64,000 bases of DNA from a virus (Duplodnaviria > Heunggongvirae > Uroviricota > Caudoviricetes): positions 1-64,000 of IMG/VR virus record IMGVR_UViG_3300046002_003930, one strand, 5' to 3'. Of the stretch, positions 1 to 45,020 are shown in pieces (position 1 is the first letter of the stretch; the number at the start of each line of letters is the position of its first letter). A program made the position numbers and the translations under genes. A model generated the notes under the pieces. The model worked only from the letters and a program-made list of their open reading frames with translations. It did no database searches and was not told the origin of the DNA.

Positions 1-118
1 AACCCGCGGCCCTATTCTTACCGGGACTTTGCCGCAAAAAATCTTTTCACGGTGAAATAAGTAAAAGCGGGCGGGTGAAAGCCCCGCCACCTTTCCCCAT
101 TTAATAACGAGAGAATAA

Positions 119-379
119 ATGTCCGATTTTGAAATCTTCGCCTTTACACCGGAACGCCAACAAACGGCCGAAATTATTAAGTTTCCGGTCCCTGATACTG
201 TTGGCGTTGCTCCGCTTTACTTTGTTCTGGATGGGGAGGATGAGATCTGTACTATGCTCAACTTGCCGAACGCTAGAAACATTGCGCGGCTTCTAGCAGC
301 GGACTGGCCCGATCAAGTGTTCACGGTTGTGGACGAATGGAATGTGGTCCTGTTTACTTCGGGGTCCGAAGTAAACTAA
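119..379 (+). CDS. hypothetical protein (pre-early-like region)
   Basis: 86-aa ORF, first gene of window, followed by palindromic repeat element. Confidence 0.45.
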   Translation: MSDFEIFAFTPERQQTAEIIKFPVPDTVGVAPLYFVLDGEDEICTMLNLPNARNIARLLAADWPDQVFTVVDEWNVVLFTSGSEVN

Positions 380-384
380 CGCTT

Positions 385-460
385 GACAAACCCTAAGTCA
401 TTGATTTCATTGATGATTTGGGGCCCCTCCAAAAAAGCCTTATAAATCAAAGACTTATGC
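385..460. repeat. large imperfect palindromic element copy 1 (CTAAGTCATTGA...GGGGCCCC...TCAATGACTTAG-like)
   Basis: GGGGCCCC core at 420-427 flanked by inverted CTAAGTCATTGA / ATCAAAGACTTA arms; same architecture recurs 4 more times. Confidence 0.6.
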
Positions 461-528
461 AAGACAATCGTAGGGCGTATGTGGCGCCGATTTTACACCT
501 AAAACTCCCGCCTGTCAAGAGCGAGAAA

Positions 529-546
529 CATTACAAATTTGTAATG
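529..546. promoter_or_regulatory. 18-bp perfect palindrome CATTACAAATTTGTAATG (operator-like), copy 1
   Basis: Exact palindrome; second identical copy at 1697-1714, each just upstream of a gene start. Confidence 0.4.
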
Positions 547-612
547 AAGAAAATGCTTGCCTTTCTGCTAAATTGCGCGTATTATAATGAGACTGAAACA
601 AAGGAGGCCGAC

Positions 613-1131
613 ATGGGCCAAGGTTACGAAATCTTCAAAGCACGTTCCGCCAAGCAAGCCCCCATCGTCATTTTCGACCTTGACGGGACTGTGATTTGTT
701 CGCAACACCGCCACCTGTCCAAGCCGGACGGCTCGCTCGATCTAGCGCATTGGATTGAGAACTGCACCCCGGAAAAGATTTTCGCGGATAAGCTGCTGCC
801 GCTGGCTCGCTCGATGCGTGCGATGCACAAGGCCGGTCATCACGTCGTCATCTGCACGGCTCGCGTTATGAGCGAGCATGACCTCGCCTATCTGGCGAAT
901 AACGGCCTTCCGTATCACGGTCTGCTGTCGCGGGCTGAAGGTGATCGCCGCGCGGATGCGGAAATGAAGGTTTGCCTTCTTAATCGTTATTTGTTCAATC
1001 TGGGTTACGGCTCAATCCGTGAAGCAAACTGCATCATGTTTGATGATAACTTGGCCGTACTGGAAGCAATGCGCCAGCAAGGCGTTATCGTTATCAACGC
1101 CACTAACGAAAATGCACGGAGGGTTGCATGA
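613..1131 (+). CDS. HAD-superfamily phosphatase, T5 Dmp-like 5'-deoxyribonucleotidase
   Basis: RBS AAGGAGG then ATG 613; N-terminal FDLDGTV (HAD motif I DxDGT) and downstream HAD-like motifs; ORF-track start 418 is an upstream over-extension. Confidence 0.65.
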   Translation: MGQGYEIFKARSAKQAPIVIFDLDGTVICSQHRHLSKPDGSLDLAHWIENCTPEKIFADKLLPLARSMRAMHKAGHHVVICTARVMSEHDLAYLANNGLPYHGLLSRAEGDRRADAEMKVCLLNRYLFNLGYGSIREANCIMFDDNLAVLEAMRQQGVIVINATNENARRVA

Positions 1132-1319
1132 CGATTATTGCACCTCGCCCTGACTATACTTGGTCAGATGAAATGAGCGAGGCCGATAACGTCGGCCAGC
1201 TTATTCAAATCATGGACGAAACCGAAGATCGGTGGGGTGGTTACGTCTATGATTACTACTCTATGGCACATTGGGTGCTGACTTTTGTTAATGAAAATAC
1301 TTGGGAGGTAGGACCTTAA
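1128..1319 (+). CDS. hypothetical protein
   Basis: 63-aa ORF, start overlaps previous stop (ATGA). Confidence 0.45.
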   Translation: MTIIAPRPDYTWSDEMSEADNVGQLIQIMDETEDRWGGYVYDYYSMAHWVLTFVNENTWEVGP

Positions 1320-1577
1320 ATGCGTAAGATAATTTTTCAGGCCCACGCTGATACTGTGGGAACCGATACGGCGGAGATTGTTCTTTATCCCGACGATGTA
1401 AAGGACAAGGAACTTGATGACGATGTTCAACAGTTTGGGCAGAATCACTGGGATAGCTACGACTCTTCTGAAACTGAGGAAGAAAGCGACGAGTATTATG
1501 AAGCTTGCGATGCTTGGTGGGAAGATTACGACCCAGTAAAACACGCCGGACTGGTTGACGACCCGGACGAAGAATAG
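1320..1577 (+). CDS. highly acidic small protein (D/E-rich; DNA-mimic-like composition)
   Basis: 85 aa, very acidic with runs such as DDDVQQ and SSETEEESDEYYEACDAWWEDYD. Confidence 0.45.
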   Translation: MRKIIFQAHADTVGTDTAEIVLYPDDVKDKELDDDVQQFGQNHWDSYDSSETEEESDEYYEACDAWWEDYDPVKHAGLVDDPDEE

Positions 1578-1587
1578 TCGGATAAGC

Positions 1588-1650
1588 CCTTGAAATCGTT
1601 AGATTTTTGGGGCCCCCCGAAAATTCCCTTATAAATCAATGACTTAGCGG
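1588..1650. repeat. palindromic element copy 2 (GGGGCCCCCC core 1609-1618)
   Basis: TTTTGGGGCCCCCCGAAAA flanked by CTTATAAATCAATGACTTAG. Confidence 0.55.
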
Positions 1651-1696
1651 CTTTCCGCCTCTACACGAAAAACCTAGCCGAGTCAAGCCACGCAAA

Positions 1697-1714
1697 CATT
1701 ACAAATTTGTAATG
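1697..1714. promoter_or_regulatory. palindrome CATTACAAATTTGTAATG copy 2
   Basis: Identical to 529-546; about 90 nt upstream of the CDS starting at 1804. Confidence 0.4.
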
Positions 1715-1803
1715 AAAAACCTGTTGTGTTCTTCGGCCCGTTTCCCTATATTCAAGAGGTCGGGGGGATGGGCCTCCCGCGCAAAAGGAACTAAAGAAAC
1801 ATC

Positions 1804-2124
1804 ATGGCTAAACAAGCTGTCTCGAAATACACCGCCGCTATGGAACAAGCTATCCGTGACGAGCCGGTCCTGAACCAAGCCGTCGCCAATCGTCTGGCCG
1901 CGTCTTTCGGCCCGACCTTTACGGGTCGCATGGTCATCGCGAAAATTAACTCGATGAAACTGCCCTATCAGAAGAAGGTCGCCACCACCAAAACGGGTGA
2001 GCCGGTCGAACGCAAGGAACTTCTGGTTGCGGAGATCGCCAAGTTCGTCGAGGGTAACCTCGATGGTCTGGACAAGGCTCCGAAACCCGCTCTGCAAGCT
2101 ATCCGGGACGCCTTCGCGGCCTAA
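1804..2124 (+). CDS. small protein, paralog family member 1 (about 80 percent identical to 4231-4554)
   Basis: MAKQAVSKYTAAMEQAIRDEPVLNQAVANRLA... almost colinear with the product of 4231-4554; RBS AAAGGAAC upstream. Confidence 0.6.
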   Translation: MAKQAVSKYTAAMEQAIRDEPVLNQAVANRLAASFGPTFTGRMVIAKINSMKLPYQKKVATTKTGEPVERKELLVAEIAKFVEGNLDGLDKAPKPALQAIRDAFAA

Positions 2125-2351
2125 CGGATAGGGTTAACTATTGAGGGTGGGGCCGTCAGTAATGGCCGCTCTACTAATAAAGCGAGAATAGCCTTCTACA
2201 TGGGTCAGGTTCTCGCCACCCCGATAGTTACCACATGAACAGCGGCCCTCCCTCGCACTAAGGGAAACGTGGCTCTGTTGAATGCGCGATAGTGGGGTCG
2301 AACCCGCTCGCCGTTCTTGTGGTAACTATTCTCAAACAAAAAGGAACTAAA

Positions 2352-2699
2352 ATGCAACTTTCTCCCTCCACCATCTCGACCATCATCGCCGTTCTGTCCG
2401 CTCAAGGCGTCAACGTCACCGGCGATCAAGTCCGGTCGGCTCTGGCTTCACTGGTTGGCGAAACCCCGCCGCCCTCGCCGGTTAATCTGCAACCGGGCGA
2501 AAAGGTCATCGTTCAGAACCACGCCGACGGCGAAACCGAAACCTTCAGCACGATCGACGCGGCCCGCGAATACATCGTGGACAACTCGGAAACCGGCTAT
2601 AGCGGCCGCCTCCGCGACTCCTCGGACTTTTCGGCTTACATCGTTCGCCGGAAACTGAATGTCGAACTCGAACAGGCAACGACTGTCACGTTCGAATAA
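2352..2699 (+). CDS. hypothetical protein
   Basis: RBS AAAGGAAC then ATG 2352 (MQLSPSTIS...); the ORF-track start 2292 lies upstream of the RBS. Confidence 0.5.
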   Translation: MQLSPSTISTIIAVLSAQGVNVTGDQVRSALASLVGETPPPSPVNLQPGEKVIVQNHADGETETFSTIDAAREYIVDNSETGYSGRLRDSSDFSAYIVRRKLNVELEQATTVTFE

Positions 2700-2705
2700 T
2701 AAGGC

Positions 2706-2741
2706 TTGACCGTGGCTTTCGGGCCACGGTCTCCACTTTTG
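2706..2741 (+). terminator. stem-loop plus T-run after the 2352-2699 CDS
   Basis: CCGTGGC-TTTCG-GGCCACGG followed by TCTCCACTTTT. Confidence 0.4.
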
Positions 2742-2742
2742 G

Positions 2743-2822
2743 GCTTGACAATGCTAAGTCATTGAAAACGTTCAACTTTTGGAGCCCCTCGCTTTTTTCC
2801 TTATAAATCAAGGACTTACGCT
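2743..2822. repeat. palindromic element copy 3 (degenerate GGAGCCCC core 2781-2788)
   Basis: CTTGACAATGCTAAGTCATTGAAAACG...TTTTGGAGCCCCTCGC...CTTATAAATCAAGGACTTACG. Confidence 0.55.
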
Positions 2823-2832
2823 GTAACAATAC

Positions 2833-3291
2833 GTGACTAGCTTTCTTTCTCAAATGCGATATTATGGACCTATGAAAATCACTGCCTGCAACGAAACCTT
2901 TTACAATGCCGCCGTTTGGTATGCCAACGCGCTTGGTATCGCTGACCATGAGTTTGACCTAACCATTGATTACGCGGACAGCGTGGATATGGTTGGCGCG
3001 GCACAAATCCTTTATCATAAAGGTGTCGCGGTCATTACCATGAACACGACGCAAGATGAAAGCGACGACGAACTAGAACTGCTGGCGCATGAGATGGTGC
3101 ACCTGAAACAATATGTTACCGGACAAATGATTGACCTGCTGCTGACAGGGGTTGTCATTTGGGAAGGCACGGCCTATGATGCTTGCACTGACGCGAACTC
3201 GTGGGCCTACTGGAACGCCCCTTGGGAGTTGGAGGCTTTCAGCCGTCAACGTGGTCTTAACTGGATGAGGACTGTTAAAAATGTGGCTTGA
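2833..3291 (+). CDS. putative HExxH zinc metallopeptidase-like protein
   Basis: LLAHEMVHLKQY (HExxH); true start may be the internal MKITACN. Confidence 0.4.
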   Translation: MTSFLSQMRYYGPMKITACNETFYNAAVWYANALGIADHEFDLTIDYADSVDMVGAAQILYHKGVAVITMNTTQDESDDELELLAHEMVHLKQYVTGQMIDLLLTGVVIWEGTAYDACTDANSWAYWNAPWELEAFSRQRGLNWMRTVKNVA

Positions 3292-3487
3292 TTTTGTAGA
3301 AATGAGCTGGGATAACGATGGACAGGAGGGCCATTTTTCTTTTGGCATGACTATGGCCGATGCTCAAGAAATCGTGAACAAAGGTTCGCTTGAGGACCGC
3401 CATGCTGAAATCATCGTGGCAGCCGCTAAGTATTTGGCGGCGAAGGACGCTCCGTTTTTCCGTGATACTAACAAGGATGAAGACTAA
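3281..3487 (+). CDS. hypothetical protein
   Basis: 68-aa ORF overlapping previous stop. Confidence 0.4.
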   Translation: MWLDFVEMSWDNDGQEGHFSFGMTMADAQEIVNKGSLEDRHAEIIVAAAKYLAAKDAPFFRDTNKDED

Positions 3488-3654
3488 TGGAAGCGAATAC
3501 CTACCTTTTTACTGAGGAACAACTGAGAAAATACGCGGAAAACTGGTTTCTGCTCGCCTTGGATGACGTAGGCACGTTCGATGAACTGTGGGCGATGCAC
3601 GAACGTCAAAATAATACTTGACAGGGCGAAAGGGAGGGTCTAAAGAGGCCCTCC

Positions 3655-3725
3655 CGCTAAGTCCTTGAATTCATTGAACTTTTGGGGCCCCGCGGAAAAC
3701 CCCTTATATATCAAAGACATAGGTA
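3655..3725. repeat. palindromic element copy 4 (GGGGCCCC 3684-3691)
   Basis: GCTAAGTCCTTGAATTCATTGAACTTTTGGGGCCCCGCGG...CTTATATATCAAAGACAT. Confidence 0.55.
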
Positions 3726-3779
3726 CGGGGTTGGAAAATGCCAGCAAAAACAAACACTTAGCTAACCCATTGATATTGC

Positions 3780-3835
3780 TCACTTTTTTGCAGGGGCCCC
3801 AAAAAGCTAATGAAATCAAGGACTTATTTCAGCTC
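3780..3835. repeat. palindromic element copy 5 (TTTTTGCAGGGGCCCCAAAAAGC; core 3793-3800), plus a partial arm at 3868-3900
   Basis: Near-perfect inverted repeat TTTTTG-GGGGCCCC-AAAAA followed by ATCAAGGACTTAT. Confidence 0.5.
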
Positions 3836-3920
3836 TCCTGAACTTAATGTTAAACCTTAAGAGTTGGCGCTAAGTCATTGAAATCGTTCAGCTTTTCGGA
3901 AAAGTGCGCGCAGCGCCGAG

Positions 3921-4100
3921 TAGAGTGTCAAGTCAATTTTCAATTTTGCCGCGAATAAGTGCTTCTGCGCCGGGGCCAGTGCGAAGTCAAGTCCTATTTT
4001 AACGAGTGCCAAAATAAGTGCTGCGTTTTGCGCCGATTTTACAGTGCGAAAGCAATGGTGTCAAGATTACAAATTAGCAAGTGCTAAAACAATGCCGCTA
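3921..4100. repeat. three tandem ~58-bp direct repeats (AGTGCGAAGTCAAGTC...GCCAAAATAAGTGCTGCG...)
   Basis: Three consecutive units share GTCAAGTC-ATTTTAA-G-C-AAATAAGTGCT. Confidence 0.5.
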
Positions 4101-4230
4101 GCATGAGTCTCGGGCATCAAAACAACGCCTGCTGCGATTTTTCTTGATTTTCCCAGTCAAACCCCCTATTATTAGAAAGTCAAGAGGGCGAGGAATAGTC
4201 CCCGCCCCAGCAAAAAGGAAAACTACCACT

Positions 4231-4554
4231 ATGGCTAAGCAAGCTAAGACCTCGAAGTACACTGCCGCTATGGAGCAGGCCATCCGCGATGAGCCCGTTC
4301 TGAACCAAGCGGTTGCCAATCGTCTCGCCACCGAGTTCGGTGTTGAGTTCACCGGCCGCATGGTGATCGCGAAGATCAACTCGATGAAGCTGCCCTACGA
4401 GCGTAAGGCCGCGACGACCAAGGCCGGCACTCCGGTTGAGCGCAAGGACGCCCTGGTTACCGAGATTGCCAAGTTCGTTGAGGGCAACCTCGACGGCCTG
4501 GACAAGGCCCCTAAGGCTGCCCTGCAAGCCGTTCGCGACGCGCTGGCTGCCTAA
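4231..4554 (+). CDS. small protein, paralog family member 2
   Basis: RBS AAAAGGAAAAC then ATG 4231; MAKQAKTSKYTAAMEQAIRDEPVLNQAVANRLATEFG... paralog of 1804-2124. Confidence 0.6.
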   Translation: MAKQAKTSKYTAAMEQAIRDEPVLNQAVANRLATEFGVEFTGRMVIAKINSMKLPYERKAATTKAGTPVERKDALVTEIAKFVEGNLDGLDKAPKAALQAVRDALAA

Positions 4555-4584
4555 GCATCTTGGGACCGAAAGTTAAAAAAGTTC

Positions 4585-4613
4585 TTGACTTTCGGTCCCA
4601 CTCGCGCTATACT
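4585..4613 (+). promoter_or_regulatory. T5-type sigma70 promoter P1 (TTGACT-17-TATACT); -35 sits inside an 11-bp hairpin GGGACCGAAAG/CTTTCGGTCCC
   Basis: AAAAAAGTTCTTGACTTTCGGTCCCACTCGCGCTATACTT. Confidence 0.65.
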
Positions 4614-4736
4614 TATTAAAGATGAGGAAAACGAGGGGCCTTCAATGGTCTGAGTGTTTATACTAGACGAGCACGCTTTAGTAGTGGTCGAGTGGGCCTG
4701 AGGGAAGGATTGACCAGGTTTCCTTATTTTAGTTCT

Positions 4737-4765
4737 TGACTTTCGAGTCGAAGTTTAGTATTATA
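4737..4765 (+). promoter_or_regulatory. T5-type promoter P2 (TTGACT-17-TATTAT)
   Basis: TTTTAGTTCTTGACTTTCGAGTCGAAGTTTAGTATTATATAAG. Confidence 0.6.
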
Positions 4766-4845
4766 TAAGACTGAGACGGGCGCAGGCCCCACCGTGCTTC
4801 GGCAAAGATTGAAATAAGCATGTTTCAATGTCTCGAAAATAGTTC

Positions 4846-4874
4846 TTGACTTTGCAGTCAACTTGAACTATACT
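4846..4874 (+). promoter_or_regulatory. T5-type promoter P3 (TTGACT-17-TATACT)
   Basis: AAAATAGTTCTTGACTTTGCAGTCAACTTGAACTATACTTATT. Confidence 0.6.
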
Positions 4875-4983
4875 TATTAAAGATTGAGGCGGGCCCGACA
4901 CTAAGTCTGTTTTACACAAGTCTTTCCCCAGGTGGGTCTTCTTGAAAACAGCACTGGTCACCCGCGTAATCTGAAAAAAGTTC

Positions 4984-5012
4984 TTGACTTGTCCCGCTGA
5001 ATGCGGTATAAT
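4984..5012 (+). promoter_or_regulatory. T5-type promoter P4 (TTGACT-17-TATAAT)
   Basis: GAAAAAAGTTCTTGACTTGTCCCGCTGAATGCGGTATAATAGAG. Confidence 0.65.
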
Positions 5013-5029
5013 AGAGAAAGCCTCCCGGG

Positions 5030-6260
5030 CGGGCTGCCAATACACCGGGACCAATTTGTGGGGGAGGCAACGCAAGCTGCCCATCAGCGCGACCTCCCCC
5101 ATGTACGAAATTGTGGTACCTATGAAGCTAATTAGGTAAATGACCGTGAGCGGTCCCAGCCACTCCAAGTTTGCCGAAACTATACTAATCTACTTCGAGG
5201 TCAATGGGCAGGGAGGTCGTACGCCCTGTTTATGCGAGCATACATCGACCCTGGTAGAGACCATCCCGAATAGGTGTGCACAGCCTAGGTCGGCTCTGGT
5301 TCCATGATAGTAGGCAATTCAATAGGCTACGGCCTGCGGCACGGATTTACATGGACTGGAGCGCTTGCGCGACAGGACTAACACAATTTAAACATCTAGC
5401 TCGTGAGGCTAGACTGTCGTCGCGAAAATTTGAGACTAGCAGATGCGGAGGAGTCAAGCTGTGAGGCCGGTTGCAGGTGCGAGCAGGGACAGTTCAAGGA
5501 TCGCAGTGTCTACCCGAAAGCCTTGCAACGGTGAGTACGGAGGGGGAACTTGGAAGGGTGATCAACCAACCTTGGAGAACCTGTCTCAAACCGCTTTCTG
5601 ATGAGGCTGTAAGGCCGAAATGTGGAGTTGGCACGAAATTGAAAGAGGGACTTTGCCAGCCCTCACCACATAAAAGCGTGGAATAAGTTGTGGGTGCGCG
5701 TTCTGCGTTATTGAGTAACCCTCCGTCCTAAGGTTTAACGATTAAACCCAGTGGGTCGAAGTCATGAGCGACTTGCCGCGTTACTAGTGCGTGAAAATCT
5801 AGCTAGAAAGGCCAGTGTGCCCGACAAACTAGTGCGGTACTCCCGTCTGGAGTGTAGGTTGTGAGTTAGCCGAATGTAGAACTCTCCGTGTGGAACCCGC
5901 GTATGAGACCCCGGAAGATGGTGCCGTGCACATAGTGCTAAAACCTCGCGTGATTGCAGCTGCAATCAGACCAGAATAGTTCGCAGTAGTTTAGGTGCAA
6001 GTCCTAATGGTCAATTCGGCGCTAAAGGTACTTTAGCTTAATTGTACGAAACCAGGACGTACTGCCATTCAATCCGACCTGTGAAGGTCCGATTATAGGC
6101 TGGGTCTTTAGGAACAAGTTCCTAAAGTTAGAGTATACCAGAGCGCAACACGGGCACGTCCTGGAGTTGGTCTGCGAAAACCTTATTAAGGACAACCATA
6201 ACCGGAACCGAGCTGCGGCTCGCCGGAGGCGGCTTTTATACCGCTCAGAACAAGGGTTTC
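5030..6260 (+). other. about 1.2-kb ORF-free, GC-richer tract downstream of the four tandem promoters (candidate long non-coding transcript or decayed gene)
   Basis: No ORF longer than 71 aa in any frame. Local GC looks near 50 percent, against a visibly AT-richer flanking genome. Contains GC-rich hairpins such as GGGGGAGG...CCTCCCCC and ends at two intrinsic terminators. Confidence 0.3.
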
Positions 6261-6290
6261 ACCCGCTGACCGAGGTCAGCGGGTTTTTTC
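6261..6290 (+). terminator. rho-independent terminator
   Basis: ACCCGCTGACC-GAG-GTCAGCGGGT followed by TTTTTTC. Confidence 0.7.
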
Positions 6291-6370
6291 GGCAGAAAAC
6301 TAACCCGAGTGGAGGATAGGAGCGATCCATCTGATAGTAATGATCGGGAGCGGCCGCGAGAACATGTTTT

Positions 6371-6402
6371 AGCAGGATAGTTGCAACTATCCTGCTTTTT
6401 TG
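6371..6402 (+). terminator. rho-independent terminator
   Basis: AGCAGGATAGTTGCAACTATCCTGCT followed by TTTTTTG. Confidence 0.7.
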
Positions 6403-6697
6403 TGTCCATTTCATTTAATTTGGGTCAGCCCCTCCCCACCCTGGTATAATAGCACAGCTTTTGAAGCGGGTCAAGATTATAAATTCGCGAGAGCTGAATT
6501 TTCTGCGCCGAGCAGTAGTAAGTCAACAACTGTTTTACCGCGTGTTGAAGATGATTTGGGAAAACTTGGGAAAACTTGGGTTAAGCGGGTTTCGGCCGAC
6601 TTATTTCGAGCTGTGCACCGTGATTTGAAATAAATGCGCCGAAATTGCTTGAGTCGCCCAATAACACCGTGAAAATCGACTCAGGTGAATACTTATC

Positions 6698-6726
6698 TTG
6701 ACTTTGATGTTTGGGTAATCTATACT
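6698..6726 (+). promoter_or_regulatory. T5-type promoter (TTGACT-17-TATACT) for the gene block starting at 6749
   Basis: ACTTATCTTGACTTTGATGTTTGGGTAATCTATACTTTAG. Confidence 0.6.
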
Positions 6727-6748
6727 TTAGACTGAATCGGAGAGAAAA

Positions 6749-6988
6749 ATGCGAGAACCTACACAACAAGAGATTTGGGAGTGCGAAGATCGCTTCAGTA
6801 TGGCAAATGATGTGGCTGATGTAGATATTTCCTTAATTGACTATACGGAAACAGGCTGGAAAGTTGATATTCACTATAACATTATCGAAGATAATGAAAT
6901 TGTGGACACTGTGCTTCTGGGCGGGTTTCTGTGGCTAGACATAGCTGAAGATGAGTTCCATCTCAACACTGACGGGAAGGTTTACTAA
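6749..6988 (+). CDS. hypothetical protein
   Basis: RBS GGAGAGAAAA then ATG; 79 aa. Confidence 0.5.
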   Translation: MREPTQQEIWECEDRFSMANDVADVDISLIDYTETGWKVDIHYNIIEDNEIVDTVLLGGFLWLDIAEDEFHLNTDGKVY

Positions 6989-7170
6989 TGTTTGAAGTAA
7001 TTTGGATGCCCTCGGGAGAAGTTCATAGTAATCACTCTACTGAAGAAGCTGCCCGTAACTACATCGAAAACAACTTTAGCATGATTACTCGTCAGTATTA
7101 TGGCGTGCGCTTGTGTGAAGACCGCTGGCCCGAATATGAATCAGTTATGGAAATGGAGAAGTATCAGTGA
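6988..7170 (+). CDS. hypothetical protein
   Basis: ATG overlaps previous stop (TAATG). Confidence 0.45.
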   Translation: MFEVIWMPSGEVHSNHSTEEAARNYIENNFSMITRQYYGVRLCEDRWPEYESVMEMEKYQ

Positions 7171-7394
7171 TTCGGATTAGTATGATGGCCGTACCTCAGG
7201 GTATCGGTATACTGCGCTTTGATATTCTCGCTGGTCAGATTTGGACCTCTGACTGTGGCAACTTCCACTGTTACTGCCTGGAAATGGCGGACGAGACTAT
7301 TCATCAAGGTCAGTTCGTGAAGACCTTTAGCGCACACAAGAACCCTTTCCGCATTCTAGCAAAAATTTATGAGGATATTCAGAATGGAACATGA
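7167..7394 (+). CDS. hypothetical protein
   Basis: 75-aa ORF, overlapping start. Confidence 0.4.
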   Translation: MIRISMMAVPQGIGILRFDILAGQIWTSDCGNFHCYCLEMADETIHQGQFVKTFSAHKNPFRILAKIYEDIQNGT

Positions 7395-7617
7395 AATCGA
7401 CGAATACTACGACACGTATGGGCGTGAGTACGGAAGCTATTTCACTGACGAGATTGATCTCATGTACTGCCATTCGCAGTATGAAATCATGTTGGCTGGA
7501 GGAATTGTGCCCGAAGAGGCTCTGATTGCTATCAAAGTTATGATGCAGGGTGCTGCCGATCAAGCTGAGTGGAATATGGTCAACGGCTATGACGACGAAG
7601 ATGGAGAAGATTATTGA
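7369..7617 (+). CDS. hypothetical acidic protein
   Basis: 82-aa ORF. Confidence 0.4.
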   Translation: MRIFRMEHEIDEYYDTYGREYGSYFTDEIDLMYCHSQYEIMLAGGIVPEEALIAIKVMMQGAADQAEWNMVNGYDDEDGEDY

Positions 7618-7931
7618 TTAAGCCTATTTCACCGGACAATATCGCCAGTGCTAAGGCGGATATCTTTCCAGATTATGTAATTGAATCTGTAAACGAGCTA
7701 ATTGCAGCCAATTTCAGTGCTGGGAGCGCTAACTTCACACAGGACGAAGTAATTGACGCGATTATGTCAAAAGCTGGTGACCTTACTAGAGCATTTATCT
7801 TCTCTAAGGGTTATCTCAACTTCGAGGAACTCTACGAGGCTCAGGGCTGGAAAGTAGTTTACGATAAGCCGGCCTATAACGAAAGTTATAAGGCCAACTT
7901 CACATTTATTAAACCTCCAAGAGGTTGTTAA
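7614..7931 (+). CDS. hypothetical protein
   Basis: 105-aa ORF, start overlaps previous stop. Confidence 0.45.
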   Translation: MIKPISPDNIASAKADIFPDYVIESVNELIAANFSAGSANFTQDEVIDAIMSKAGDLTRAFIFSKGYLNFEELYEAQGWKVVYDKPAYNESYKANFTFIKPPRGC

Positions 7932-8097
7932 TGTTCGACGAAACTGGAAGCACTTGGCGTATCATTGATACGAAGTATAAAGAAGATATTCAAGGCGGCT
8001 TTAAGACTGAGTTTGCCGCTCTTGAGTTCGTACTGAAACACTTGGGCGCGTCAGACGCTCAGTTTATTATTCGCAACTATGGAGTGTATAACCGCTA

Positions 8098-8667
8098 ATG
8101 TTTGAATTCAAGATTGATAACGCACACGCTGCATATAAGCTAATGCAGGATGGCTGGCCAACGAAGATCGTAAGTCTCGTTGGCCCAGACATTAACTTCG
8201 AGCTGCCTGAGCAAGGCGACCATCACATCATCCGAGTTTTCCATGATTTCGAGGGTCCAGTTGACCCAGCTACGCTTGCTGGCACGACTTGGGACCTGAA
8301 AGGTCACGATGTTATTCTGCCAACAAAAGACATGGTCTTTGATGTTCTGCAGCACTGCTGGGACCTTAAAGAGGGTGATCGTCTACTTATTCACTGTCAT
8401 GCAGGGCGCAGCCGAAGTGCTGCAATGCTCATTGGCATTATCTTTGACCATATGCGCGGCAATAGCATCGAAGATGCTCGACGTGCGCTAAAGATGGTTG
8501 AGAAGGTGCGACCTACAATGATTCCTAACCGTCTCATGATTGAGATGATGGATGAGATTATGTGCAACTCGGAGAATCAGCTCCAGGTTGTTGTTAAGGA
8601 ATATTGGGATTCGTATGTCGGTGCTGATAAGGACCTGCGTACTAAATATAGCGGATGGAAAGCATGA
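8098..8667 (+). CDS. CX5R protein tyrosine/dual-specificity phosphatase-like protein
   Basis: LLIHCHAGRSRSAAMLIG matches the HCxxGxxRS phosphatase P-loop. Confidence 0.6.
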   Translation: MFEFKIDNAHAAYKLMQDGWPTKIVSLVGPDINFELPEQGDHHIIRVFHDFEGPVDPATLAGTTWDLKGHDVILPTKDMVFDVLQHCWDLKEGDRLLIHCHAGRSRSAAMLIGIIFDHMRGNSIEDARRALKMVEKVRPTMIPNRLMIEMMDEIMCNSENQLQVVVKEYWDSYVGADKDLRTKYSGWKA

Positions 8668-8856
8668 AAACAGCTAGACAATCGAACGCTGTTGGTTATA
8701 TATTAGTGTTTCTTATAGGCTACGGAGCATTGTCTCTTTTCTTCGATATTTTGAGGTTTATTTCCTGATGATTACGATTCCAATATGGCTTTGGTATACT
8801 ATGTGCTTTATTTGTGGCTCATGGGTAGTGCTAGTGATAAAGGAGCTTAAACGCTA

Positions 8857-9063
8857 ATGCACGTACTGATCTACAAGGGTGATGAGTATTGCTCGGTTAT
8901 GGGTATTTGCTTCACTAAAAAAGGTGCGAAAAAGGTTCGTGACCGTCTAATTAAACAGGACTGTAGGAAGTACCCGCAGTTCAAACATCGTCTACAACAA
9001 CAAAAAGCTGCGTATGTAATTACGCAGCCTCAGAAGGGTCATAAAGATGTTTATTCTACTTGA
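8857..9063 (+). CDS. hypothetical basic protein
   Basis: 68-aa ORF. Confidence 0.4.
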   Translation: MHVLIYKGDEYCSVMGICFTKKGAKKVRDRLIKQDCRKYPQFKHRLQQQKAAYVITQPQKGHKDVYST

Positions 9064-9556
9064 GAAATCCAAGTTTAAATGGGTAACTCCAGATGGCTTG
9101 GACGCAACACCAGAGTTCGAGACTGAACTAGAAGCTGAAGAGTTTCGGGATGAGTACAACCTTGTCGATGCAGCAATTTTTGAACTAAAAGGGTGGATGT
9201 AATGAAATTTGAAGCGTGGAAACAGGAACTTAACACTCTCTTTGTTGGGGAGTTCGGCATGGATAGTGATAGTTTCGAAGACTATCTCTGGCGAGACGCT
9301 TGGGAGGGCTGGCTCACTCCGGAGCAAGCTTTCGATGACTGGATGGAATATGTATATAATCGCTAAATATAACCTAGGGGCCTACTACCCCACTCCGTGG
9401 GCATTTCCCACACTAGAGCACGCTCAAGGTTGGATTATGCAAAACGCTTTGCCCACGTATATTGTCCTATATTTGGCAATCCAACAAGCTCAGGCTGCCT
9501 AATTGGCGCGCTACGCGCGCAAGCCTAAAGATAGCTTTTCAACCCCGAAACTAAAG

Positions 9557-9588
9557 AAACCGATTAGTCTTTCGACTAATCGGTTTTG
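9557..9588 (+). terminator. rho-independent terminator
   Basis: AAACCGATTAGTC-TTTCG-ACTAATCGGTTT followed by TGGC; then about 450 nt of AT-rich non-coding DNA. Confidence 0.65.
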
Positions 9589-10070
9589 GCTAGCGCGGAC
9601 CGGGTGCTCGTAATAGCATGGTCCAAATTTACGTCATGGAATGGAAACTTCTCTTAAAACGTAGATAAAAATTTTCATAGTTGGTAATTGCGTAGCAGAC
9701 ATAGTGGTAGCATCGAACCCGTAATATAGACTTAAGAACTTTGTTTAGCTTATATCACGTTCGAAGTGGCTTATCTTTAGCTTGTCGAAGCTCGATTAAG
9801 CTCTACGGGAGGCTTGCATAAAAGGAATCAATTGGTTCCATGCGGCTTCGTCGCTAACGCTCCTAGCCGCAGGACCGATACTGTAAAGATCCTTTTCTTC
9901 AGACTCCCGTTTTTCTTAATCTTTAACACCACTACTTCATATATATTACACCACCGGAGGCAAAAAGTAAAGACTTATTTTAGAATGCTATGGTATTAAA
10001 AACGCTAGTATGGCCATAACGTATTGTTCGTTTTTTGACTTTGGTATTTCGACAGTTCAAAAATAAGTTC

Positions 10071-10099
10071 TTGACTTTGCCGCCTCGGTGTGCTAAGAT
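10071..10099 (+). promoter_or_regulatory. T5-type promoter (TTGACT-17-TAAGAT)
   Basis: AAAAATAAGTTCTTGACTTTGCCGCCTCGGTGTGCTAAGATACTTAAATG. Confidence 0.55.
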
Positions 10100-10105
10100 A
10101 CTTAA

Positions 10106-10603
10106 ATGATCGCACTAGAGCCGCCGCAAATTCGCCAACCAACTTATTACGAGTGTTCGCGAGGTCACCTAATTCGAGCAATCGACCCCACGCGCTGCGC
10201 GCATTGTGATGGGGTAATCAGCTACCATACACCCGGTTTTCGCGTTGAGAAGATCGTCGGGGCAGAGATTATGCTGATTGACCCAATCGGACGTAAGCAC
10301 GTGATGAAGATTGCAGATGTTGCAAATGGTCTCTTGCCGGGGCGCGACCTACCAGACTTTCCCGGGCGTTGGCTGTACTTTATGAAAACTTACTCCGGGC
10401 ACTATCAGATTGGAGTTTCGAGAAACCCCTACCGCCTTACGCATGGCGAGATTCTAGATACCAAGTTCTTTTCTAGCCTAGCTGCTGCGAACCGCGCGCA
10501 GGATGGAATCCGAGCGAACTATCCTAGCTTGCGTGTTGAGAATCCGTCGGCGAATGCATATAAGACTGTTACTCCAATTAAACCATTTGAAAGGCTGCCA
10601 TGA
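10106..10603 (+). CDS. hypothetical protein (Cys/His cluster near N-terminus)
   Basis: 165-aa ORF directly after promoter. Confidence 0.5.
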   Translation: MIALEPPQIRQPTYYECSRGHLIRAIDPTRCAHCDGVISYHTPGFRVEKIVGAEIMLIDPIGRKHVMKIADVANGLLPGRDLPDFPGRWLYFMKTYSGHYQIGVSRNPYRLTHGEILDTKFFSSLAAANRAQDGIRANYPSLRVENPSANAYKTVTPIKPFERLP

Positions 10604-10729
10604 AGATTATCACGACTCGCGAACAAGCCAAGTGCCTGCTCAAGTTTCTAAACGACAATCTCTACAATGCAGAAACTGAAGACGACTATCTACTACTTGA
10701 AACCTTTTATGACCTTTTGAAAGCAAAAT

Positions 10730-11062
10730 ATGACCAAGTCTGATGTATTCTATTTCGTAATCGCGCATCTTCGTGCGCAAGGTGTGCAGGCCAAGAATGA
10801 GATTGGCTCATGCAGCTATCGTACGCCCGAAGGCTTGAAGTGTGCAGCTGGCTGCCTTATTCCTGACGATGAGTATAACCCTGAGTTTGAGGGTTCATCT
10901 TGGGCAACAATTGCTAGCCACTTCCCACAATATGAAGAATATAGAGACATGATCACGGACTTGCAGCTTCTGCATGATGGCTGCTACCAAGGATTTGACT
11001 CCCTGCGTTTCAGTCTTGCGGTAGCTGTGCTAGAAACTGAACATCTTCACCGGAAAGGCTGA
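10730..11062 (+). CDS. hypothetical protein
   Basis: 110-aa ORF. Confidence 0.45.
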   Translation: MTKSDVFYFVIAHLRAQGVQAKNEIGSCSYRTPEGLKCAAGCLIPDDEYNPEFEGSSWATIASHFPQYEEYRDMITDLQLLHDGCYQGFDSLRFSLAVAVLETEHLHRKG

Positions 11063-11280
11063 TGAAAAAGATACTTATTATACTGACTGCACTCACTCTA
11101 GCTGGGTGCACGTATAAGCCTAGAGACCTTGATGATCTCTACGTATTTGCTAAACATGACGAAACCGGTCTATGTTTCTTCGGAGAAGACTGGGACAATG
11201 ATGGAAGACTAGACAGCGGTACTGCGGGCAATGTGCCTTGCACTTCTGAAGTTGAAGCATGGATTGAGGCCCGCAAATGA
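11062..11280 (+). CDS. small lipoprotein
   Basis: MKKILIILTALTLAGC signal peptide with lipobox. Confidence 0.55.
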   Translation: MKKILIILTALTLAGCTYKPRDLDDLYVFAKHDETGLCFFGEDWDNDGRLDSGTAGNVPCTSEVEAWIEARK

Positions 11281-11912
11281 TTATTGCAATCGGAGATATT
11301 CACGGACGCTTTGACAAGCTCCAAGAACTACTCGCACTTCTTCCCGAAGAAGGCGAGCTGGTGTTTCTTGGCGACTATGTCGATCGCGGGCCACAATCAG
11401 CTGAAGTAGTCGCGCTTCTGCGCGAAACTGCACACATCTGCCTGTTAGGCAATCATGAAGAACTCATGATTGACGCGATTCTACATGGCCAAACGTATAT
11501 GTGGCATATCAATGGCGGTCTAGAAACCATTCAATCGTACAAAAACTTGTACGGTGAGGATAAAGCCTGGATGATGATGGAATCGGACGCTGAATGGATG
11601 CAGACTCTTCCATGCTCTTACACTACGGATACGCATATCTTTGTTCACGCTGGACTTAACCCCCGTAGGGAAGTTCAGACGCGTGAAGATATGATCTGGA
11701 TTAGGGATTTGTTTCTGCGCTCAGATAAAGACTTTGGGCGTCACGTTGTACATGGACACACTCACTCCCATGAAACGAAGAAGTATCATGACGTAGAGCT
11801 TCTTGCTAATCGCACGAATCTAGATACTGCAGCATTTCATACTGGCATTCTTAGTGCCGCTATAATCGACGGCGACACTACGATTGTTGTTCAAACTGAG
11901 GCTGATGAATGA
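11277..11912 (+). CDS. Ser/Thr protein phosphatase (calcineurin-like metallophosphoesterase, lambda-PPase type)
   Basis: IGDIHG, GDYVDRG and GNHE motifs in canonical order. Confidence 0.75.
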   Translation: MIIAIGDIHGRFDKLQELLALLPEEGELVFLGDYVDRGPQSAEVVALLRETAHICLLGNHEELMIDAILHGQTYMWHINGGLETIQSYKNLYGEDKAWMMMESDAEWMQTLPCSYTTDTHIFVHAGLNPRREVQTREDMIWIRDLFLRSDKDFGRHVVHGHTHSHETKKYHDVELLANRTNLDTAAFHTGILSAAIIDGDTTIVVQTEADE

Positions 11913-12062
11913 AAGAGGCGCTTTATCACACACTAGACCTTACTTGGGAAGAGCTTCAACTTCTTAAAGGTTTAGTGTACACTGAAATCAATAACGAGAT
12001 TCGCCCAGAGGAATCTCGTATTCTCGATAATCTTCACAACTCACTCCAAAGGCTAGATAAAT

Positions 12063-24959: not shown

Positions 24960-25298
24960 GTGACTTACACGCCTGATTTAACTAAACAAATTATTAGCGA
25001 CTACGAAGCTAATCCTACAAGAGAAAACGTAGATGTAATTGCAGACCGGATTGGAAAGCCTTCCCGGTCTGTTATTGCAAAACTAGCCGCCGCTGGTGTT
25101 TATAACACACCAGCTAAGACGACTAAAACGGGCGACCTTATTATTAAAAAGGAAGAGCTCGTAGCTGATATTGAGAAGTGGCTCAACATTGTAGCCCCTA
25201 GCCTCGCAAAAACTAACAAACTCGATCTTCGTGAACTTCATAGGGCAGTAGAATGCAAGACTGGAAATACGCACACAAAGGCTCTGACGAATACGTGA
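24960..25298 (+). CDS. small protein, paralog family member 3 (GTG start)
   Basis: Strong RBS AAAGGAGG then GTG; VIADRIGKPSRSVIAKLAAAGVY and KEELVADIEKWL modules shared with 1804, 4231, 47533 and 51651. Confidence 0.5.
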   Translation: MTYTPDLTKQIISDYEANPTRENVDVIADRIGKPSRSVIAKLAAAGVYNTPAKTTKTGDLIIKKEELVADIEKWLNIVAPSLAKTNKLDLRELHRAVECKTGNTHTKALTNT

Positions 25299-27133: not shown

Positions 27134-27338
27134 TATGGAATCGCCGCTTGACCCTAAGGTCGCCCATCAGATTAAGATGGCAGCAAAAGAAATGCTGCGA
27201 GCTCGACGCTATGAAACGGAGTATAATCCGATTTTGTATATTCCAGCAAATCTGAGCGCAAACCATCCAGATAGTGGTATGTCAATGGCAGACCACGAAA
27301 AGGAAAAAGAAGCAAGGAAAACCCAAAAAAGTTCTTGA
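27134..27338 (+). CDS. hypothetical protein
   Basis: RBS CAGGAGCG then ATG 27134; stop TGA lies inside the -35 TTGACT of the next promoter. Confidence 0.4.
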
Positions 27339-27363
27339 CTTTTTGGGCAGATCTTGCTATTAT
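27335..27363 (+). promoter_or_regulatory. T5-type promoter (TTGACT-17-TATTAT) driving the tmRNA locus
   Basis: AAAAAAGTTCTTGACTTTTTGGGCAGATCTTGCTATTATAAGAG. Confidence 0.65.
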
Positions 27364-27369
27364 AAGAGA

Positions 27370-27760
27370 TAGTCGTAGACGACTGATAAAGGCGTAAAAG
27401 ACGCGAGTTCGACTCTCGCCGCCTCCACCATAAGTCCATCCTAGAGCAGTTCGCGACCTTGCAGGGACAAGATAGCTCGAAAAGATGAAGTCCTGGCTCC
27501 TGCAAGAGTCGAAGCATATCTCCCTGTGGTAAGGGACGGATTCGTTTGGGGCGACGTTCGCTGGCATGGGCCGGTGTAGTGTAAGTATCTGGGTGGCTTT
27601 ATGATGGGGGCGACATGGCATTCGATTTTACGAGAAATAAACAGTAAGAGACTAGTGACTGGCAAAGTGCCATTTTAAATGCAAACGATAATGTTGCGTT
27701 TGAAGATTTCCGCGTAGCGGCTTAATCTTCTTGGGTCCGCGGGTACCTCGAAACAGAAAC
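27370..27760 (+). ncRNA. ssrA: circularly permuted (two-piece-type) tmRNA (ssrA). Acceptor piece about 27370-27430 ends in T-arm/acceptor/CCA; coding piece starts GGGGGCG at 27606; tag ORF 27681-27725 encodes ANDNVAFEDFRVAA-stop
   Basis: T-arm GCGAG-TTCGACT-CTCGC then CGCCTCC-A-CCA (27403-27430). Downstream GGGGGCGACAUGGCAUUCGAUUUUACG resembles the tmRNA 5' end GGGGCUG...GGAUUCGAC. P1 pairing GGGGGCG/CGCCUCC and P2 pairing UUUUACG(27626-32)/CGUAAAA(27393-99). Tag reading frame GCA AAC GAT AAT ... GTA GCG GCT TAA. Confidence 0.7.
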
Positions 27761-27783
27761 CCGTACTTAATTTTAGAGGAAAT

Positions 27784-27936
27784 ATGAAATACTCAATCGG
27801 TTACAGAAACGCCAAAGGGCACTTAGTTTGCGAACTTTTCCCTGACTGGCCCTCGACATTCAAGCGTCTTGAAGGGCTTGATCATTTAAGTAAGACGGTC
27901 TTCGAAATCGTCCAAGGAGAAGATGAACCTATTAGC
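27784..27936 (+). CDS. hypothetical small protein
   Basis: RBS AGAGGAAAT then ATG; 50 aa; stop overlaps start of the spanin gene. Confidence 0.4.
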
Positions 27937-43619: not shown

Positions 43620-45020
43620 GGATTTGGCAGTATAGTGTCAATAAGGATAAGCACAGTAATGTGCCTAAAGGAAGAATTTCTACATACTTCCGCTAGAAAT
43701 AGTCCATCTATAAAAGCTTAGCTTAGGCCACCCGGAGTTGTCCGTAGGTTGCCCCATCTTCCAAGGTGGTGTATAGTAAGTCGAGTAATTTGCCCGGAAA
43801 CGGATAGGACAGAGCCAATCGGTGAGTCTAATGGAAGTAGCATTTCAGTGAATTCAGCTAAATCGGCGAATATAGAATAGCAATAAGTAGTTATATAGTT
43901 CGATCACGCAAGAAAGAGCATATGGCAGTATAAGCGAAGAAGGTGTAATAGCCCCAACCGTAAAGTACAGTTGAGTAGTCCGCAAGACGAAAGACAGGAG
44001 GTGTGTTGTATATTGTATCTAACAAGATATGAAGCAACAGAAGTAGCACATCTCGGTAGATTCGCAAATTGCAGAAATGGTAAATGCAACAGTTTTAGAT
44101 ACTGTAGATTCTAGGTTCGATCCCTAGTTTGTATAACAAAAGCGAAAGACTACTTCAGTATATTACGAAAGATGCTTAATACCTCACTTATGAATGGGGT
44201 CTTTGATAGCTCGCAAGGCTTGAGAAGTTGCTTGGATAGAGATCGTAAGGGTTTAGCGGCCCTGAACTGCCGGGAGGTAGGCGAAGGATAGAACGGCGAG
44301 TAGTAATGTATGATAGGTCAAAAGCCAGACCTTATAAACGGCAGCATTGAGAGATACTAGATAATTCTAGTGGATAACGGATTAACGTTCGCCCGCAAGC
44401 GAAACGGTACGGTTCAAAGGCTCTCACTAAACGGTGTAATCTCAGCCCGTTTGAAACTGCATAGATAATCTCAAAAGGGCTTATCTATTCAGTTTATATG
44501 AGTTAGGTCGATCAGGGATGACAGCAGCCTCCAAAACTGCCGAGGAGAGTTCGAGTCTCTCAACTCATGCCAATTAACTTAGGCAAGGAAAGTCAGGACG
44601 CTGAGCGGCGTAATTAACCGTAAACGGAGGATGGGCAAGTCTACTCCCGGCAAGGGACGAGGGCCAGATACCCCACCGGCCTAAGTTACAAAATTCGCAG
44701 AAGTACCGAACGCGGGAGGCATCTAGGGTCAGTGAGACGGCCCTAGGGAAAGCTGCCAGTAGGTCCGGAGATTAATTCTCACCTTGCTCTGGCTGCGATA
44801 CTTATTTACTCAACTACCTTGCAGCTGCGGGTCGCAATGTTGAGAACGTCGGGGCAAAACGTAAACCCTTACACCAATTCGCTTCGGGTTACCGACTAGA
44901 TTATAGGCAGGACCAAGCTTTACGTAAGCACCCTATAATAGCATTCGTTCCTGAACGTAAATCAGGTGGTGGAGCTGCCGGAAGGCGGCCTAGCGTCCCC
45001 GCGCTATATCGGGGCAAGTT
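43620..45020 (+). other. about 1.4-kb ORF-free tract inside the tRNA cluster (purine-rich first half, GC-rich second half) with dispersed T-arm-like motifs
   Basis: No plus-strand ORF of 60 aa or more; contains GGTTCGATCCCTAG (44108) and tRNA-Trp; repeated AGTCAGGAC(A/G)GCT motif at 44596 and 45037. Confidence 0.3.
44498..44572 (+). tRNA. tRNA-Trp (anticodon CCA)
   Basis: Acceptor ATGAGTT/AACTCAT, D-arm GTCG-ATCAGGGA-TGAC, loop CTCCAAA, T-arm GAGAG-TTCGAGT-CTCTC, CCA. Confidence 0.6.

Follow-up and report, generated by a model that had tools for sequence, protein, structure and literature searches.

Inverted repeat elements at the boundaries of early transcription units in an uncultured T5-like phage as candidate double sites for a DNA-bending protein

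Why should the first 4 kb of a phage sequence carry the same inverted repeat after one early gene and then another, and what could such a repeat be doing there? We asked this question of a stretch of 64,000 nucleotides (IMG/VR record IMGVR_UViG_3300046002_003930, positions 1 to 64,000; hereafter called the window) that, as judged from the genes it encodes, comes from a distant uncultured T5-like phage. A preliminary description of this locus had reported five large palindromes and a partial arm between pre-early-like genes, each palindrome being able to form a hairpin or cruciform of about 70 bp, and had proposed them as candidates for the injection-stop signal of T5 or for the operator sites of a pre-early regulator. 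The elements do exist, and they form a conserved family that is peculiar to a single uncultured clade of T5-like phages. Their pattern of conserved and variable positions points to a double site for a DNA-bending protein, with the integration host factor (IHF) of the host as the prime candidate, which would form an architectural boundary between early units and, secondarily, a recombination point; this is our leading reading, although a tentative one that we place somewhat short of probable.

The search for repeats in the window identified five full elements of about 64-65 nucleotides (nt) each, with 62-82% identity to the reference copy, and one lone arm. All of these, together with the exact copies of an 18-bp palindrome that is discussed below, are confined to the first 4 kb of the 64 kb. 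The elements and the stretch that follows the last of them are located as follows:

Positions 393-457, plus strand: element E1, with left arm TAAGTCATTGATT, core TTTGGGGCCCC, an A6 tract and right arm AATCAAAGACTTA, located 13 nt past the stop codon of the open reading frame (ORF) 119-379.
Positions 1582-1646, plus strand: element E2, located 4 nt past the stop codon of ORF 1320-1577.
Positions 2754-2818, plus strand: element E3, with core GGAGCCCC, preceded by a terminator hairpin (2708-2731) and by TTGACA (2745-2750).
Directly 3' of E3: the module CGCTGTAACAATACGTGA, and then a -10 box TATTAT at about 2860-2865.
Positions 3657-3721, plus strand: element E4, the first of a conserved terminal cluster, preceded by TTGACA (3618-3623) and a GC hairpin (3632-3655).
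Positions 3762-3826, minus strand: element E5, inverted with respect to E1-E4 and almost invariant among relatives.
Positions 3869-3896, plus strand: a lone left arm (half element), 93% identical to the left-arm reference and found at the same place in three relatives (L038, L039 and L033).
Positions 3897-4230, no strand assigned: the non-coding stretch 3' of the terminal cluster, in which blocks like GCGCCGAGTAGAGTGTCAAGTCAAT and CAGTGCGAAGTCAAGTC are conserved.

The arms TAAGTCNTTGA and TCAANGACTTA are separated by exactly 42 nt in all five full copies, and every copy starts and ends with TA. When at most one mismatch is allowed, the arm sequences are matched 15 times in the 64 kb (10 of these matches fall within the first 3.9 kb), as compared with 5.4 matches expected for the whole window, and this number was reached by none of 100 shuffled sequences. 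The right-arm 19-mer CTTATAAATCAARGACTTA occurs four times against an expectation of 0.03. The family of five palindromic copies and a partial arm therefore stands as first described, although its coordinates had been off by up to about 18 nt, and the fifth copy, which had been placed at 3780-3835, lies in fact at 3762-3826 and in the orientation opposite to the others. Two further details of that description had to be corrected. The centre, given as the contiguous TTTTGGGGCCCCAAAA, is TTTT-GGGGCCCC-NCN-AAAA, with a core that lies nearer to the left arm (at 15 nt) than to the right one (at 19 nt); and the elements do not fill every intergenic gap, the one at 2125-2351 being without any. This gap contains a 21-nt inverted repeat (2224-2244 and 2309-2329, 90% complementary) and a T-loop-like GGGTCGAACCC, and neither a tRNA nor an Rfam family was called in it.

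Is the family maintained beyond this one sequence? Relatives were collected from IMG/VR through DNA-pattern scans and as contigs encoding an early protein of 106 amino acids (aa), a search of IMG/VR with the dmp protein having found no relatives. Absence from related phages, or lack of conservation in them, had been named as the result that would speak against a function, and we found the elements kept in every close relative. In three of these (L035, L037 and L038) the minus-strand genes for a T5-type terminase (small and large) are followed by a plus-strand block of small genes of about 9-10 kb, which includes dmp and two to three copies of the gene for the 106-aa protein, and then by a gene-free stretch of about 2.3 kb that is the counterpart of window positions 4560-6750. 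There are 6-12 copies of the 64-nt element per early block in the relatives and none elsewhere in the loci examined, and the copies occupy matching relative positions from one relative to another. Because the left edge of the window cuts into the element block, the five and a half copies seen here probably represent no more than the right-hand portion of a full set. The terminal cluster (a forward copy, about 40 nt, an inverted copy, about 40 nt and the lone left arm), with the roughly 330 bp of non-coding DNA after it, was found in all relatives, with a conservation that exceeds that of the flanking genes. In a scan of 185,579 bacterial genomes the element was present only in one contig of a metagenome-assembled genome, 12.9 kb long and resembling a phage fragment. 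This contig (CAYTAW010000045.1, loci L040/L041), binned as 'uncultured Bdellovibrionales', carries three elements and two genes for the 106-aa protein; this fragment probably belongs to the present phage group and was mis-binned, though the binning could be a hint about the host.

To the question of which positions of the element have been kept, the comparison of 47 copies from eight sequences gives a rather detailed answer. Their consensus is cTAAgTCcTTGATTTCaTTgG.tTTTTGGGGCCCCtCCaAAAA..cctt..AAATCAAtGAcTTAg. The core TTTTGGGGCCCC is essentially invariant, and both arms are conserved at TCAA and at TTA, with four bases in between that carry less information (1.6-2.0 bits at TCAA/TTA versus 0.5-1.4 bits at NNNN, a value above zero that the shared ancestry of the copies could explain). 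The published consensus of IHF, for which the affinity depends on flanking A/T elements, is TAAnnnnTTGATW (PMC10380432). Read on the other strand it becomes WATCAAnnnnTTR, which corresponds to WATCAANNNNTTR in our counts of arms and has nine specified positions. All nine are present in 27 of the 47 right arms and 24 of the 47 left arms (51 of 94 arms in all), and eight of the nine in a further 17 right and 23 left arms (40 of 94). The window as a whole has 11 perfect WATCAANNNNTTR matches against 3.6 expected, six of which are arms of elements. Each half, in addition, begins by the core with an A/T tract (A6 in the right half; T5 in the left half, which is A5 on the other strand), continues with 8 nt and then reaches the consensus. 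A sequence read from the lambda record, AAAAAAGCATTGCTTATCAATTTGTTG, has the layout of the right half of E1, with A6, 8 nt and TATCAATTTGTTG; we take this sequence to be the H' IHF site. The right halves fall into two classes, one having GCCTTATAAATCAA and the other being the reverse complement of a left arm. About 30% of the copies are inverted though all the neighbouring genes are on one strand, and this fits a roughly symmetric binding module.

From this anatomy we infer IHF binding, bending of the DNA and an insulating or architectural role, in the following manner. Each 64-bp element would act as duplex DNA, as a site for a sharply bending protein and not as a hairpin, and would consist of two inverted IHF-type sites (A/T tract, 8 nt, WATCAA-NNNN-TTA) with their A/T tracts abutting the GC core TTTTGGGGCCCC. 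Host IHF would be the most likely protein to bind the arms, and the invariant core might serve as a rigid clamp or else be recognised by a second factor. The ORFs of the window showed no HU/IHF signature of a phage-encoded homologue in a search with a crude regular expression only. Two adjacent sharp bends at the 3' boundary of an early unit, upstream of the next promoter/operator module, would then constitute an architectural boundary that separates strongly transcribed neighbouring early units and shapes the upstream DNA of the promoters that follow. Since the copies are repeated, they could also provide points of homologous exchange through which small early-gene cassettes would be gained and lost. 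A distant T5-like lineage (L002, L014 and L015) has a differently built element, in which a GC palindrome is flanked by TCAA-NNNN-TTA arms, and such a construction on the same principle supports an independent recruitment of the same kind of binder. In this lineage the repeat is about 66-70 bp long, is present in at least seven copies per locus (L002 1084-5490, L014 463-1800, L015 9571-10760) and is made of a 25-bp palindrome (TAAGTCGTTGA-ATA-TCAACGACTTA), a GC palindrome (for example GGCGGGCCGGCCCGCC) and a second 25-bp palindrome.

Several facts weigh against the double IHF site. Sites for IHF are degenerate, and the arms show more than the consensus demands, the NNNN positions not being fully random (they are often NGAC) and TTAG extending past the IHF consensus; this excess may come from the recent common ancestry of the copies or from a binder of greater specificity. 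In half of the left arms TTGAA stands in place of TTGAT, and IHF leaves the invariant core of 12 nt without an explanation. As for the host, it is the type of the transfer-messenger RNA (tmRNA) alone, permuted and of the alpha kind, that suggests a proteobacterium; IHF is largely confined to Proteobacteria (PMC10380432). In three relatives with about 50% protein identity (L016, L022 and L023) simple perfect palindromes replace the element while the 18-bp palindrome and the promoters are kept, so that the element is dispensable for the basic regulatory layout. Lastly, single copies fold somewhat better than mononucleotide shuffles (mean z about -2), which is to be expected of any inverted-repeat design.

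How are the elements placed with respect to the signals for transcription? Every one of them starts 4-54 nt past a stop codon, always that of a plus-strand gene, and has the promoters of the next unit downstream of it. The order in the intergenic regions is a stop codon, an optional TTGACA-N17-TAAAGG within a GC hairpin, the element, a promoter module and the next gene. The promoter module 3' of the element is of two types, one being CGCTGTAACAATACGTGA with a rightward promoter and the other a leftward TTGACA-17-TAAAAT, the 18-bp palindrome and a rightward promoter. The signals and the gene in question are the following:

Positions 490-518, minus strand: leftward sigma70-like site TTGACA-17-TAAAAT, followed by CGGCGC, which points into E1.
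Positions 529-546, no strand: 18-bp perfect palindrome CATTACAAATTTGTAATG, 10 nt from the -35 boxes of the leftward and of the rightward promoter-like site.
Positions 557-585, plus strand: rightward promoter-like site TTGCCT-17-TATTAT, before dmp (ATG at 613).
Positions 1697-1714, no strand: the 18-bp palindrome again, with TTGTGT-17-TATATT (1724-1752) and the gene at 1804 downstream of it.
Positions 1804-2124, plus strand: gene for the 106-aa protein, the best-conserved early gene, with paralogues at 4231-4554 and 24960-25298.
Positions 4036-4064, minus strand: second leftward TTGACA-17-TAAAAT site, from the promoter scan and the repeat search.
Positions 4063-4080, no strand: a third, degenerate version of this palindrome, AAGATTACAAATTAGCAA (83%), with the promoter at 4144-4172 and the gene at 4231 downstream of it.

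The leftward site, which on the plus strand reads GCGCCGATTTTA...TGTCAA, is conserved in many relatives and is directed into the element or the hairpin, towards the 3' end of the gene that lies upstream. A site of this kind would either give rise to a very short antisense RNA or exert its effect through convergent transcription. The idea that GCGCCGATTTTA might be a nick site as in T5 was dropped, the BF23 paper having given no consensus to compare. With regard to the signal that directly precedes many elements (window 3618-3655, L007 12520-12558, L037 5770-5817 and others), it consists of TTGACA, exactly 17 nt and TAAAGG or TAAAGA, with the spacer and the -10-like box inside the GC hairpin. 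The stems of this hairpin around a promoter-like signal co-vary between copies (GGGAGGG..CCCTCCC, GGGATTGG..CCAATCCC, GGGGCTGG..CCAGCCCC).

The two positions that had been given for CATTACAAATTTGTAATG, 529-546 and 1697-1714, proved exact, and the sequence occurs nowhere else in the window. The palindrome is centred about 54 bp upstream of both putative start points of the divergent promoter-like sites. It was found in 16 IMG/VR contigs; it is multi-copy in the closer relatives of the window, which carry the 64-nt element, and is also there as multiple exact copies (3-6 per locus) in L016, L020, L022, L023, L025 and L030, all of them without the element. Three of these six (L020, L025 and L030) form a GC-richer group in which the palindrome stands in a different promoter context. 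In L016 and L023 the slot of the element is filled by simple perfect palindromes, such as GGGTGTGACAAATTTGTCACACCC, that share a ACAAATTTGT core. As far as can be read from its distribution, the 18-bp palindrome is a separate and more widespread site, operator-like or activator-like in appearance. A candidate for its binder, although unproven, is the 106-aa protein. This family has 77 metagenomic homologues and no Pfam domain, gives weak PHROG matches to 'DNA binding protein' and 'D5-like transcriptional regulator', and yields a helical AlphaFold model (pLDDT 84) with no significant fold match. It accompanies the 18-bp palindrome in all the longer loci of the group with 45-49% GC, with or without the element, and is absent from the loci having the arm motif only. 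An equivalence of the 106-aa protein to A2 of T5 was rejected (hhalign probability of 0.7%).

Other explanations of the element have to be set against the double bending-protein site, and the most immediate is that it acts as a nucleic-acid structure, be it a DNA cruciform, the RNA hairpin of a terminator or a hairpin that RNase III would process, as it does in the early region of T7. The arms are indeed inverted repeats, they come right after stop codons, where terminators and processing sites lie, and the copies beat mononucleotide shuffles slightly, the DNA fold of E1 having a z-score of -2.5. However, the minimum-free-energy folds vary from copy to copy, and of six DNA folds four do not surpass dinucleotide shuffles. 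In a set of 17 copies the proposed stem is paired in 78.9% within copies versus 80.3% with the arms shuffled between copies, its middle arm position is unpaired in 15 of the 17, at a single position arm changes disrupt pairing in up to seven of the 17, and compensatory changes are no more frequent than in the controls. RNAalifold, applied to the non-redundant copies on both strands, yielded no structure (-0.4 and -0.7 kcal/mol) and no covariation. A hairpin in the left half (TCATTGA..TTGATGA versus TCCTTGA..TTGAGGA) seemed at one point to be compensatory, but it holds in only 7-10 of 40 copies, that is, in a subfamily. The core does not lie midway between the arms (15 versus 19 nt), GGGGCCCC is unable to close a loop, no U-run follows the element on its 3' side, the scan for intrinsic terminators (a GC stem-loop plus a U-run) made no call at any element, and E3 and E4 come after GC hairpins of their own. 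Given that the arms show neither covariation nor a common fold on either strand, the hairpin or cruciform of the preliminary description is not the feature under selection; its inverted arms stand, the 70-bp structure is true only in a weak sense, and we find a structural function very doubtful. Somewhat less doubtful, but still improbable, is that the element is itself an early promoter of the sigma70 type, with TTGGGG as the -35 box, a spacer of 17 nt and TATAAA as the -10 box. The four forward copies of the window all have TTGG(G/A)G, 17 nt and TATAAA or TATATA, a T-rich stretch comes before the -35 box, and the -10 box matches in at least five of its six positions in 16 of the 47 copies; but the -10 columns are poor in information across the family, 17 of the 47 copies match in only three of six positions, the -35 box reaches only three of six, and four of the five perfect TATAAT boxes belong to copies pointing away from genes, as about 30% of the copies do. 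Moreover, separate and better promoters lie downstream of each element, and none of the elements was called in the promoter scan. Some copies may be active as promoters, yet this is not what has been conserved. The terminal inverted repeats and the TA at both ends of every copy bring to mind a miniature inverted-repeat transposable element, an origin that is largely refuted and that we consider extremely improbable: no precise empty site was found among the relatives (the junction-spanning matches come from mosaic modules), copies stand at the same relative positions in these, bacterial genomes have none save for the one phage-like contig, and no transposase gene is nearby. The syntenic loci L007 and L013 differ by a cassette (L007 9804-10095) comprising a promoter, an ORF of 68 aa and an inverted element, the junctions of which fall inside a shared repeat sequence of about 40 nt (ATATCAnTGACTTACACTGTAACATTATGTGATTGGACA), and L013 carries a single hybrid element where L038 has two abutting ones. 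Cassette junctions, the hybrid copy, the lack of an empty site and the near-absence from bacteria fit homologous exchange at repeats, of the kind reported for PeSL cassettes of T4-type phages (see below), and not transposition.

The main rival to IHF is a protein encoded by the phage itself, for example a pre-early or early transcription regulator, that would bind the arms, the core or both and have the elements as its operators; we see this as possible though unlikely, and an internal promoter, a structure, an injection-stop signal and a mobile element are each less likely. The core is invariant in the 47 copies, in relatives with proteins 61-95% identical, and it differs in the distant lineage, which is the pattern to be expected of co-evolution with a phage factor. 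In addition, the arms in L002 are 25-bp perfect palindromes, typical of dimer operators, and the 106-aa early protein is conserved, duplicated and weakly matched to DNA-binding and D5-like regulators. On the other hand, half-sites 53 bp apart from centre to centre, as in the lineage of the window, are ill-suited to a simple dimer, and the 106-aa family tracks the 18-bp palindrome and not the element, being present in the element-free L016, L022 and L023 and missing from all the loci with the arm motif alone; its model has no significant fold match, and it is unrelated to A2 of T5. Could the elements, or the terminal cluster at 3657-3896, be instead the counterpart of the injection-stop signal of T5, or control in some other way a stepwise entry of the DNA? 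The T5-like context that had been recognised earlier is upheld: the DNA polymerase has its best matches in Demerecviridae (about 44% aa identity), ORF 613-1131 in the same region is a homologue of dmp (33% identity to T5 dmp, E=6e-16) whose orthologues in the relatives match Pfam Phage_T5_dNMPase, and the element-rich block of about 9-10 kb adjoins the T5-type terminase genes in relatives, the site of the T5 terminal repeat. The terminal cluster and its non-coding stretch are better conserved than the genes around them and precede the gene-free region of about 2.2 kb. As in the injection-stop region of T5 (Repeat Region 3 of the left terminal repeat), repeats and inverted repeats are clustered in non-coding DNA of a dmp-containing region that enters first (here probably), inverted units are about five helical turns apart (52 bp in T5, 53 bp centre to centre here) and, by analogy of position, a strongly conserved inverted pair stands at the inner end of the region, before a large untranslated stretch. 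Unlike the situation in T5, in which Davison's analysis placed paired DnaA boxes within the inverted repeats IRD'/IRC' with a spacer of 52 bp, the window has no paired DnaA boxes (there is one match to TTWTNCACA in the first 8 kb and seven in the whole window), no A1 or A2 (tblastn of both against the window gave nothing at E<=1) and elements dispersed over all the boundaries of early transcription units instead of one stop position. Nor is there any sequence similarity, none of the window motifs occurring in T5 positions 1-12000. The left terminal repeat of T5 contains no match to the IHF consensus either, and IHF-type sites are therefore not a general trait of T5. Of the functions first suggested, operator-like binding of a protein agrees with the data and homology to the T5 injection-stop signal does not. 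We judge it very improbable that the elements or the cluster have such a counterpart or otherwise govern entry, the argument for the cluster being one of position and analogy. The same low probability applies to the variant in which the first 10 kb or so, and above all the cluster, would be a DNA-entry control device in a T5-like clade devoid of A1, A2 and DnaA boxes. In such a device host IHF would load on the many double sites, of high affinity, as the DNA enters and would ratchet or condense the first-step DNA, or would halt the transfer at the cluster, and if true this would be a mechanistically different solution to the unresolved injection-stop problem of T5.

Coming back to the double bending-protein site, its closest known kinds are the H'-type IHF sites of lambda, the RIB/RIP (BIME-1) elements of E. 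coli and the PeSL (promoter-early stem-loop) cassettes of T4-type phages; we found no earlier description of the element itself in the searchable literature. With the lambda sites it shares an A/T tract, 8 nt and WATCAANNNNTTR in each half, the spacing being identical to that of the lambda sequence presumed to be H', and its conserved and variable positions follow the published consensus; it departs from them in having two predicted sites inverted around an invariant GC core, in being present 6-12 times per genome, and in the TTAG and frequent GAC that exceed the consensus. Its position 4-54 nt past stop codons is that of RIB elements. The geometry is the opposite one, however, since a RIB is described as two inverted GC-rich REP hairpins flanking one IHF site, and the element has two IHF-type sites flanking a GC core; RIBs are chromosomal, whereas the element is phage-specific and without a REP-like stem. 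The resemblance to PeSL cassettes lies in conserved repeats of about 70 bp between small early ORFs, in the combination of terminator-side with promoter-side signals, and in their occurrence at indel junctions of close relatives. What defines a PeSL is a stem-loop that directly precedes a sigma70 promoter, a Shine-Dalgarno sequence and a start codon. The element, in contrast, has no conserved stem-loop, its promoter-like box is not conserved, it is found in both orientations, and its distance to the real promoters varies. As it lacks a defining feature of each, the element does not belong to RIB/BIME-1 or to PeSL.

If the double bending-protein site is the true nature of the element, it would represent a phage-borne counterpart of the bacterial IHF-containing repeated extragenic elements in the reverse arrangement, with two bending sites clamped on a GC core, and a virulent phage would be making use of an architectural protein of its host at each boundary of its earliest transcription units. 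The elements offer an experimentally simple handle on a large uncultured T5-like clade. They also belong to a conserved intergenic "grammar" composed of a hairpin, the element, a leftward promoter-like site, the 18-bp palindrome and a rightward promoter, and recombination at the repeats gives a concrete route for the shuffling of small early genes.

As for the phage as a whole, the window encodes an NAD-dependent ligase, a DnaB-like helicase and the DNA polymerase, which is of family A, and had no match at the DNA level (blastn) to deposited phages. Because the DNA polymerase and dmp are present and homologues of A1 and A2 absent, 'T5-like early region' is a fair label and a T5-type pre-early gene set is not. 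There are 29 tRNA genes, within the array of which we found the tmRNA (27331-27816, phage-borne, permuted alpha-type, with tag ANDNVAFEDFRVAA) and a GOLLD RNA (43998-44448, 172 bits) that has a tRNA-Leu gene inside it (44061-44137).

The region after the early genes, 4555-6760 (about 2.2 kb), contains no credible ORF, and no Rfam family matched positions 1-7000 even at E<=1. Strong sigma70-like promoters of the form TTGACT-17-TATAMT stand at four places in it (4585, 4736, 4846 and 4984) and terminator-like hairpins near 6258-6292 and 6372-6400, and the region is kept patchwise in relatives (for example 4555-5106, 5317-5436, 5670-5926 and 6244-6451). We regard it as a candidate for a large structured non-coding RNA (about 5013-6292) together with small RNAs, or for a cis-acting region.

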